The position numbers and the translations under genes are program-made. From NCBI GenBank assembly GCA_903854995.1, contig CAINXS010000052.1, positions 1-55,427 of the forward strand: DNA of 55,427 bases, given 5' to 3'. Shown in pieces: positions 4,303 through 4,801 of the stretch; the first letter of the stretch is position 1, and the number at the start of each line of letters is the position of its first letter. Origin of the DNA: Candidatus Moraniibacteriota bacterium. Lineage in GTDB: Bacteria > Patescibacteriota > Minisyncoccia > Moranbacterales > UBA1568. The notes under the pieces are model-generated. The model had not been told where the DNA came from. It searched no databases and saw nothing but the letters and a program-made list of their open reading frames with translations.

Positions 4303-4330
4303 ACAACTTACAACTTACAACTTACAACCG
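4303..4330. repeat. (ACAACTT)x3.5 tandem heptamers filling the whole spacer between the four-helix-bundle gene stop and the atpC start
   Basis: The sequence acaacttacaacttacaacttacaaccg was read directly. Confidence 0.95.
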
Positions 4331-4690
4331 TCATTTCACAAGTGTTTTCTTTAACCCACCAAGCTGATTTGAAATCCCATCTATCCGTTTCATCGCCTCA
4401 TCATACCGATCTTCTTGAACCATCCCGTTTAATTTCAACGCATCCATTGCCGCCATTGTCTCATATAGGGAACGGAGCGAAATATTCAGAAAACGATTCA
4501 GTTCCTTATCAGTCGTTTTTCCGCTTCCTTCCGCGATATTAAGCGCTACCGACAAGGCGGCACGGATCATCTGGCTACCTATTTCGAAACGGAATTCTTT
4601 CGGTAGATCCTTAACAATTTTCAGAACAAGGGAAAAGAGCTCCTGCGAATCATTGTATACTTTCCATTTCCTGAACCGAAATTTCTCCAT
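4331..4690 (-). CDS. four-helix-bundle protein (23S rRNA intervening-sequence protein / DGR Avd family)
   Basis: The 119-aa product carries KWKVY...QMIRAALSVALNIAEGSGKTTDKELNRFLNISLRSLYE, characteristic of this family. Confidence 0.85.
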   Translation of the reverse strand: MEKFRFRKWKVYNDSQELFSLVLKIVKDLPKEFRFEIGSQMIRAALSVALNIAEGSGKTTDKELNRFLNISLRSLYETMAAMDALKLNGMVQEDRYDEAMKRIDGISNQLGGLKKTLVK

Positions 4691-4730
4691 ATCATTTACT
4701 GCTTCGAATCACCCCCCGTTCCCAATTCCC

Positions 4731-4801
4731 CGTTGTCGGTTGTTAGTTGTCGGTCCCCTCCCCGTTCCCCATTGTTAGTGGTCAGTTGTTAGTTGTCAGT
4801 C
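4731..4801. repeat. GTTGTNR word block, inverted relative to 4303-4330, overlapping the atpD stop
   Basis: The DNA reads cgttgtcggttgttagttgtcgg ... attgttagtggtcagttgttagttgtcagtc. The last atpD codons (TDN, stop) are encoded by the repeat. Confidence 0.9.

Follow-up and report, generated by a model that had tools for sequence, protein, structure and literature searches.

An S23p-family gene between inverted heptamer arms in the atpD-atpC spacer of a Candidatus Moraniibacteriota bacterium

Introduction

Intervening sequences (IVSs) of rRNA interrupt a helix of 23S or 16S rRNA and are excised by RNase III without religation. Those of 23S rRNA that contain an open reading frame (ORF) occur in Leptospira, Coxiella burnetii, Xanthomonas and Brucella. 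Heptamers form intergenic direct repeats in other genomes, among them the short tandemly repeated repetitive (STRR) sequences of heterocystous cyanobacteria, and the phyla with such repeats are also rich in TIGR02436 paralogues. To our knowledge, 30 years have brought no function or origin either for the rRNA IVSs with their S23p ORFs or for the intergenic heptamer repeats. Here, a gene of the S23p family that lies between inverted heptamer repeats (the arms) in the atpD-atpC spacer was analyzed in a 55,427-nt stretch of DNA (the window, by which the whole stretch is meant; GC content 54.7%) from a Candidatus Moraniibacteriota bacterium, a member of the candidate phyla radiation (CPR; Patescibacteria). 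Identical segments of the window are present in several metagenome assemblies.

The 23S rRNA IVS of Coxiella contains an S23p ORF, a 28-bp terminal inverted-repeat stem that is cut by RNase III and, in its 5' part, two to three tandem GACAGAT heptamers (PMC4990558). Insertions in the 16S and 23S rRNA genes of CPR bacteria include 23S_rRNA_IVP ORFs (bioRxiv 10.1101/2024.02.27.582315), and genes of the PF05635/TIGR02436 family have also been found within cas operons (PMC3936711). Direct arrays of the heptamer TAACTGA occupy intergenic regions in Beggiatoaceae, Cyanobacteria and Bacteroidetes, and those of Beggiatoaceae have been proposed to be post-transcriptional or translation-initiation elements (PMC4679880). 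G-rich GGGNATC heptamers have been described in Xanthomonas and Nostoc (PMC4692102). No account of four-helix-bundle genes outside rRNA with inverted heptamer arms on their two sides was found in the literature, coverage of which was incomplete, such that a prior description is possible.

The evidence presented below tips in favor of gene and inverted arms being one unit, an rRNA-IVS-type cassette placed in an mRNA spacer. The gene-plus-arms architecture is a family trait, found repeatedly among uncultured bacteria, many of which have it in spacers of mRNA, tRNA or rRNA.

Results

On the minus strand, the gene order is atpA, atpG, atpD, a 119-aa ORF, atpC and leuS (Table 1). The 119-aa ORF has the same orientation as atpD and atpC on either side of it, with no space for transcription signals of its own. 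A preliminary description, made from the sequence alone, had placed an Avd-family gene at this position; a four-helix-bundle gene is indeed found there, but both profiles and fold assign it to a different clade. The protein matched PF05635 (E = 8.5e-26, 90.7 bits against a cut-off of 33.8) and TIGR02436 (E = 2.4e-25, 88.8 bits against a cut-off of 24), whereas the Avd-specific profiles remained below cut-off (NF033474, 28.6 bits against 80; PF22296, 18 against 40). An AlphaFold2 monomer model (predicted local distance difference test score, pLDDT, 94.8) comprised helices at residues 10-27, 31-56, 61-87 and 93-118. In Foldseek comparisons of this model, the nearest structure was Xcc0516 (2gsc), with a template modeling (TM) score of 0.93 and a phmmer match to the 119-aa protein at E = 4e-9. 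BT_0352 (2rld) followed at a TM score of 0.81, and Avd of Bordetella phage (4dwl and 8ube) was a distant third, at 0.77 and about 10% identity. The 119-aa protein is thus a member of the S23p/rRNA-IVS clade (PF05635/TIGR02436) and not Avd proper. Its homologues at 55-70% identity number in the hundreds. The ratio of nonsynonymous to synonymous divergence (dN/dS) of the gene, determined against the related locus L002, was 0.10, indicative of purifying selection and hence of a functional gene.

Table 1. Positions of the four-helix-bundle gene, its arms and other features of the window
Feature	Positions	Strand	Remarks
Y1 transposase, IS200/IS605-type, 112 aa	162-500	minus	
leuS, 1002 aa	749-3757	minus	
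atpC, F1 epsilon subunit	3856-4302	minus	
3' arm, CG(GUUGUAA)3GUUGU	4303-4330	minus	Repeats, Tandem Repeats Finder (TRF), partition function
Four-helix-bundle gene, 119 aa, S23p/23S-rRNA-IVS protein family	4331-4690	minus	PF05635, TIGR02436
G-rich block 2, GGGGAAUUGGGAACGGGGGG, and 21-nt leader of the four-helix-bundle gene	4691-4731	minus	
5' arm copy 2, ACCGACAACUAACAACCGACAAC	4732-4754	minus	Inverted-repeat search; predicted pair probability 0.94-1.0
G-rich block 1, GGGGAACGGGGAGGGG	4755-4770	minus	Predicted to bulge between the two 5' arm copies; within tandem duplication
5' arm copy 1, ACUGACAACUAACAACUGACCACUAACAA	4772-4800	minus	25 nt, 84% complementary; predicted pair probability 0.93-1.0
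atpD, F1 beta subunit	4789-6186	minus	TIGR01039, E = 9e-242
atpG	6495-7373	minus	
Gene-less hairpin, atpA-atpG spacer: ACAACUUACAAC arm, G-rich loop, GUUGUNA arm	7385-7476	minus	
atpA	7488-8984	minus	
Second four-helix-bundle gene	37404-37781	minus	29% identical to the first
tmRNA	41596-41997	plus	RF00023, 117 bits
Reverse transcriptase fragment, RVT_1	54713-55426	minus	E = 6e-22; cut by window end

The spacer downstream of the gene reads ACAACTTACAACTTACAACTTACAACCG on the plus strand, and 26 of its 28 nt fit (ACAACTT)n, so that its description as consisting entirely of this repeat was nearly but not strictly accurate. The 3' arm begins 1 nt past the UGA of the four-helix-bundle gene and reaches the atpC AUG directly, and the heptamer register extends into the first atpC codons (GUUGUAU followed by GUUACUA). 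TRF reported this array at 4298-4328 (period 7, 4.4 copies, 95% matches), abutting the atpC ATG, and period-7 arrays were also found at both 5' arm copies. Here, upstream of the gene, there are two ACAACUNACAAC blocks, one of which holds the atpD stop codon. The 12-mer GTTGTTAGTTGT occurs at 4785-4796, where it spans this stop codon (4789-4791), and again at 4739-4750; each copy pairs with the 3' arm at 11 of 12 positions, with a single A-A mismatch. These blocks are therefore the near-perfect reverse complement of the spacer, one of them overlapping the atpD stop, as had been noted. Both 5' blocks and G-rich block 1 fall in a 46-nt tandem duplication (4714-4759 and 4760-4805). The corresponding inverted repeats are 4303-4327/4772-4796 (25 nt, 84% complementary, 444 nt apart) and 4303-4321/4732-4750 (19 nt, 84% complementary).

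The repeat arrays supply the stop and start codons of core genes at this locus, a point that bears on the annotation of CPR genomes. The 3' end of atpD in the mRNA reads GAG ACU GAC AAC UAA, and the last codons with the stop (ACT GAC AAC TAA) are built from the first 5' arm block, the ACUGACAACUAACAACUGAC... array. Where the cassette is present, AtpD ends in EETDN and AtpC begins MLLK; in relatives that lack it, the corresponding termini are E[AS]AK and MxSIK. No Shine-Dalgarno sequence precedes atpC. In orthologues, the G-rich block that precedes the four-helix-bundle gene is spaced from the start codon as a Shine-Dalgarno sequence would be (GGGAGACTATATG in L168, AAGGAGATGTGGATATG in L169). 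The G-rich blocks of the window (4712-4770 and 7419-7448, minus strand; GGGGAACGGGGAGGGG, GGGGAAUUGGGAACGGGGGG and GGGGAUAGGGAUUGGGACAGGGUGGGUGGGGG) show a G-quadruplex-type tract pattern and are similar to the GGGNATC heptamers of Xanthomonas and Nostoc.

Long-range pairing of the arms, which the preliminary description had proposed would loop out the cistron, was predicted in both the minimum free energy and the centroid fold of 4290-4810(-). In the partition function, 25 pairs had probabilities of 0.93-1.0, in contexts of 521 and 901 nt alike. The predicted fold places both 5' copies side by side on the single 3' array, copy 1 pairing with its start-codon-proximal half and copy 2 with its stop-codon-proximal half, and G-rich block 1 is bulged between them. 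The resulting helix of ~25 bp, with one A-A mismatch per heptamer, would enclose the ~400-nt cistron and bring the atpD stop beside the atpC start. Terminal inverted repeats forming a closing stem, as in rRNA IVSs, are thus predicted here, and the arrays also have the form of intergenic heptamer arrays, namely at least two tandem 7-nt units ending near a start codon. The fold of the whole region 4290-4810(-) is not unusually stable (z = -1.37) and was not used as evidence. Likewise, among 40-mers drawn at random from the window, 15% equalled the bare arm duplex (-28.3 kcal/mol), and the argument from its energy was dropped; it is unexceptional because any C-rich segment can pair with the G-rich tracts of the 5' region. 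Given that these energies are unremarkable, the significance of the arms rests on their conservation across the family and not on thermodynamics.

Such conservation was assessed in a metagenome scan that yielded 80 loci (L087-L166), 64 of them non-redundant with usable flanks. Flanks were scored as inverted when an ungapped inverted match with a score of at least 10 lay within 60 nt of the start and stop. By this measure, inverted flanks were present in 59% of the 64 homologues, compared with 3.8% of 183 neighboring genes from these loci (Mann-Whitney p = 1.6e-18) and 15% of non-cognate flank pairs. Most paralogues elsewhere therefore also have arms. The mean RNAduplex energy of cognate flanks was -41.3, whereas non-cognate flanks averaged -31.3 (p = 2e-9) and dinucleotide-shuffled ones -30.4 (p = 1e-11). 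Given that many loci share one arm family, the non-cognate background is high (-31 kcal/mol), and this control was replaced by that with neighboring genes.

The arms differ among distant family members (ACAACUN, AUAACUN, ACGACUN, GCAGCUU, GGGUUAC, CUGUUUA and GAAUAAG, with a few octamers), yet complementarity is retained within each locus. The 5' arm usually starts at the stop codon of the upstream gene, and the 3' arm usually starts no more than a few nt past the stop of the four-helix-bundle gene and extends to the next start codon. Arm polarity is fixed: AYRAC upstream with GTYRT downstream was observed in 29 loci and the reverse in 0 of 62. Arms of this type accompany 27 of the 41 homologues at 47% identity or above and 2 of the 21 more distant ones. 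The upstream neighbor is co-oriented in 58 of 61 loci (median gap 57 nt) and the downstream neighbor in 46 of 57 (median gap 44 nt). Three loci (L145, L147 and L158) carry the gene-plus-arms unit, with heptamer arms, within 16S rRNA genes; tRNA genes adjoin the cassette in nine loci; and in L169 (70% identical) a cassette with the same arm type has gap and an amidohydrolase gene as its neighbors. Taken together, the atpD-atpC locus of the window and the 60-odd related loci indicate that the IVS is not confined to rRNA. Instead, it looks like a general cassette of operon mRNAs and tRNA spacers, sense-oriented and usually closed by a heptamer stem.

The atpD-atpC junction was then compared among relatives. 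Orthologous cassettes are present in L001, L002, L167 and L168, with identities to the window of 95, 89, 84 and 77% for AtpC and 99, 95, 82 and 74% for the four-helix-bundle protein, respectively. All four retain the order arm, G-rich block, arm, G-rich block, gene, (GTTGTAA)n and ATG; orthologues with the gene and without flanking arms, the case that had been named as adverse to the proposal, were not encountered among them. L005 (AtpC 90%) holds a different four-helix-bundle gene at the same junction, 32-39% identical and with GAATNNN arms (GAATAAAGAAGAATGAATACGGAATCAGG and CCTGATTCTTCTCTTATTCTGTATTC). No four-helix-bundle gene is present in L003 (AtpC 84%; 155-nt spacer) or L006 (AtpC 92%; 221-nt spacer), both spacers having other palindromes. 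More distant CPR genomes (AtpC below 80%) mostly have atpD-atpC spacers of 2-48 nt. Several of them have gene-less hairpins of 100-230 nt in which stop-proximal sequence pairs with start-proximal sequence (L011, L016, L023, L041, L047, L050, L061 and L067), with clear period-7 structure in some (L011, L016 and L047). The cassette therefore appears to turn over within short evolutionary times, by gain, loss or replacement.

Synonymous divergence (dS) of the cassette is far below that of both flanking genes. Values for atpD, cassette and atpC were 0.87, 0.21 and 2.7 between the window and L002, and 0.079, 0.013 and 0.52 between the window and L001. Such low values imply that the cassette was exchanged between lineages more recently than its neighbors, or that a recombination mosaic is broken at the arms. 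In L082, nucleotide identity to the window is 96% in atpD and 100% in the cassette and atpC. The mosaic divergence in L001 and L082, as read from sequence comparison, suggests recombination breakpoints at the arms.

A further locus, L004, was considered as a third cassette type and set aside: near the contig end its GC content falls abruptly from 55% to 33% exactly at the array, and the locus is probably an assembly chimera. Positions 1-520 of L004 contain the same (GTTGTAA)n array and an AtpC N terminus of MLLR, with unrelated ORFs at 32-40% GC upstream. The break is probably a repeat-seeded chimera or, failing that, a different insertion. CPR assemblies may break or form chimeras at heptamer arrays.

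Within the window, ACAACTWACAAC was matched 24 times when one mismatch was allowed, compared with 0.09 expected, and the composite unit of G-rich block and arm recurs at about 10 places. GUUGUNA-orientation arrays (mRNA sense) are rare and occur as 3' arms. Many start codons without a Shine-Dalgarno sequence are immediately preceded by arrays. Empty sites with arms but no gene, for which a comparison of spacers had been proposed, were found both in the gene-less atpD-atpC hairpins of other CPR genomes and in the atpA-atpG spacer of the window itself (Table 1). The latter, aligned with the flanks of the cassette, is identical at 30/35 and 28/34 positions, and the sole large gap in this alignment is the gene segment. 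The atpG-atpD spacer, 6187-6494(-), comprises 308 nt with a long GAAUNAG/CUNAUUC heptamer stem (-93 kcal/mol). Its loop of ~170 nt contains no recognizable ORF, and its 3' arm extends up to the start codon of atpD. The hairpins that the cassette appears to occupy in this genome belong to a heptamer-repeat class present across its spacers.

Discussion

The closest described counterpart of the atpD-atpC element is the ORF-containing rRNA IVS. Both encode a PF05635/TIGR02436 protein, here with Xcc0516 as its nearest structure, in sense orientation within the host transcript, and both have an inverted-repeat stem of ~25-28 bp enclosing the ORF, that of the present element being a prediction. Tandem heptamers are found in the 5' part of each (in Coxiella, GACAGAT two to three times), ORF-less versions of each exist, and L145, L147 and L158 are this very element inside 16S rRNA. 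By contrast, the host RNA at the present locus is an atpD-atpC mRNA spacer and not an rRNA helix, and the 5' arm is duplicated and has G-rich inserts. In an Rfam search of the window, the tmRNA was the sole match; given that the cassette does not lie in rRNA, it lacks the location by which rRNA IVSs are defined. Cleavage by RNase III has been demonstrated for the rRNA IVS and would apply here by analogy.

The arrays share with the TAACTGA, STRR and GGGNATC repeats a tandem 7-nt unit of similar sequence (YAACTNA), an end within a few nt of a start codon, stop codons in all frames, spacers lacking a Shine-Dalgarno sequence, occasional in-frame presence inside ORFs, and accompanying G-rich heptamers. 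The reported repeats differ in being direct arrays, with no gene-family link in either PMC4679880 or PMC4692102, whereas here the arrays form inverted pairs around a PF05635 gene or an empty loop. Integron attC cassettes, repetitive extragenic palindromic (REP) sequences and bacterial interspersed mosaic elements, and palindromes of the miniature inverted-repeat transposable element type offer further parallels. These include small promoterless ORFs co-directional in host transcription units, imperfect inverted repeats, and presence or absence at orthologous sites. No association with an integrase or a REP-associated tyrosine transposase (RAYT) is seen here, and the arms are tandem heptamers that flank the gene on both sides, unlike a single structured site.

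The insertion amounts to 490 nt in an essential operon, and the stem might preserve translational coupling across it. Two routes can be envisaged. By analogy with the rRNA IVS, the stem may serve as a processing site at which RNase III would cut out the four-helix-bundle mRNA and leave atpD and atpC on separate RNAs. Alternatively, given that the atpD UAA lies inside arm copy 1, which is predicted to pair with the AUG-proximal half of the 3' arm, a ribosome terminating there would open the part of the stem by which the atpC AUG is hidden, thereby keeping the stop-to-start coupling of a presumed ancestral spacer of 20-40 nt. The two routes are compatible, and both may operate. By either, the stem would make the insertion tolerable to the host RNA, a property that would explain the presence of the unit in rRNA helices, tRNA spacers and mRNA spacers.

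Several observations weigh against a single unit of gene and arms. About 25-40% of family members have no clear inverted arms; in L107, ACAAC-type arrays share one orientation on both sides; and L118, L124 and L125 are flanked by direct repeats, with ACAACAAGTACAAT on both sides. In the window, ACAACTN arrays occur in one orientation only and without a gene in the spacers 10014-10076 and 53440-53582, and they are also translated in frame within leuS, such that arrays exist independently of the four-helix-bundle gene. The second four-helix-bundle gene has a weak inverted repeat (37319-37346/37796-37823, 28 nt, 71%) for which no pairing was predicted. The periodic A-A mismatch would make the helix weaker than the stem of the Coxiella IVS. 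No difference in stability was seen between sense and antisense stems (means of -30.0 and -29.9 kcal/mol, 31 versus 30 loci, Wilcoxon p = 0.92); thus, no G-U signature proves selection at the RNA level, and the strand comparison is uninformative. No rnc gene is present within the window, and both the RNase III and the coupling steps are transferred to this organism by analogy.

The equal stability of sense and antisense stems would be expected if the arms mattered in DNA, as a substrate for recombination or insertion, with the predicted RNA stem a by-product. The gene might have been inserted in the loop of a hairpin or cruciform extruded from single-stranded DNA, or cassettes might be exchanged via homologous heptamer arrays, for which the arrays in many spacers of this genome provide abundant homology. 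The low dS of the cassette, the apparent mosaic breakpoints at the arms in L001 and L082, and the different cassette of L005 at the same junction are also in keeping with such exchange. However, a mechanism acting purely on double-stranded DNA would predict the fixed polarity (29 loci versus 0) and near-constant sense orientation only if gene and arms were always transferred as one. No recombinase was found linked to the cassettes, the Y1 transposase at 162-500 having no surrounding heptamer arrays, and the equivalent architecture within rRNA acts as an RNA processing stem (PMC4990558). We therefore regard a DNA-level role as unlikely, although it is the strongest of the competing explanations. 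Rather less probable is that the arrays are host post-transcriptional or translation-initiation elements which the four-helix-bundle protein binds, autoregulating its own gene. Their placement directly before many start codons without a Shine-Dalgarno sequence, as in PMC4679880, accords with this proposal, and Avd, a relative by fold match, is a pentamer that binds nucleic acid and reverse transcriptase. Moreover, arm type tracks protein clade (27/41 versus 2/21), and two four-helix-bundle clades in closely related hosts carry different arms. The link between arm type and clade is nevertheless confounded with host phylogeny, binding by this protein family is putative, and both the inverted arrangement and the occurrence inside rRNA helices would be left unexplained.

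Two further explanations can be given little weight. Slippage-prone heptamer microsatellites could fill most spacers, two neighbors being oppositely oriented by chance; arrays are found throughout the window, and the duplex energy alone is unexceptional. Such coincidence is very improbable in view of the retention of arms in orthologues down to 74% protein identity, their excess over neighboring genes (59% versus 3.8%, p = 1.6e-18), the uniform polarity, and the finding of the rare GUUGUNA-orientation arrays as 3' arms. Least credible of all is that the gene encodes Avd, the accessory protein of a diversity-generating retroelement with its reverse transcriptase at the window end. The fold does resemble Avd, of which the protein is a distant superfamily member, and an RVT_1 fragment is present at 54713-55426. 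Against this, about 10% identity and profile scores below the Avd cut-offs separate the two proteins. The only reverse transcriptase is separated from the cassette by 50 kb and shows no obvious link to it; its top NCBIfam match, below cut-off, is group II intron reverse transcriptase/maturase. The conserved neighbors are atpD and atpC, no reverse transcriptase adjoins the gene, and the window contains no template/variable repeat pair or long diverged direct repeat.

If the rRNA-IVS-type reading of the atpD-atpC cassette is extended, PF05635 genes and inverted heptamer arms would be one widespread, unrecognized class of intervening cassette able to colonize any transcribed spacer, be it an rRNA helix, a tRNA spacer or an operon junction. 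In the boldest form of this proposal, the Avd-like protein would handle the excised stem-loop RNA and the cassette would spread by reverse transcription; spread through RNA and a host reverse transcriptase would explain the strict sense orientation. This extension is speculative and, in our estimation, doubtful. Were it true, a single cassette class would unify the ORF-containing rRNA IVSs, the four-helix-bundle paralogue families and the intergenic heptamer repeats of CPR, Cyanobacteria, Bacteroidetes and Beggiatoaceae.

Additional Features of the Window

The second four-helix-bundle gene is wedged between a weak T-box-like leader and the start of ileS, and it is flanked by 8-nt tandem repeats (ATATGGAT and GTTGAATG) and not by heptamers. 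Assignment of the leader as a T-box was not adopted, given a sub-threshold Rfam match only (27.9 bits against a gathering cut-off of 93, E = 4e-4). The leader (37855-38033) carries a terminator-like hairpin.

The Y1 transposase aligns only to profile positions 29-121 and is probably truncated at its N terminus. Heptamer arrays were not found in its flanks, and a REP/RAYT reading was rejected, the protein scoring 21 bits against a cut-off of 80 for REP-associated transposases.

Between atpH and atpA, the atp operon contains a 576-nt spacer and a putative 150-aa ORF (8985-10076(-); ORF at 9561-10013). The N terminus of this ORF is encoded by heptamer arrays, and the product has no match in Pfam or NCBIfam. 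In-frame arrays of leuS are found especially at 1215-1305 and 2833-3034(-). In the encoded protein, NQESGIR/NQESGIK repeats flank a conserved segment of the editing domain (residues ~241-310), LTTHNSQ/LTTENSQ repeats lie at residues ~817-850, and a NUDIX domain is inserted at residues 412-529. On other contigs, the leuS product comprises 995 aa, a difference of 21 nt, or three heptamers.

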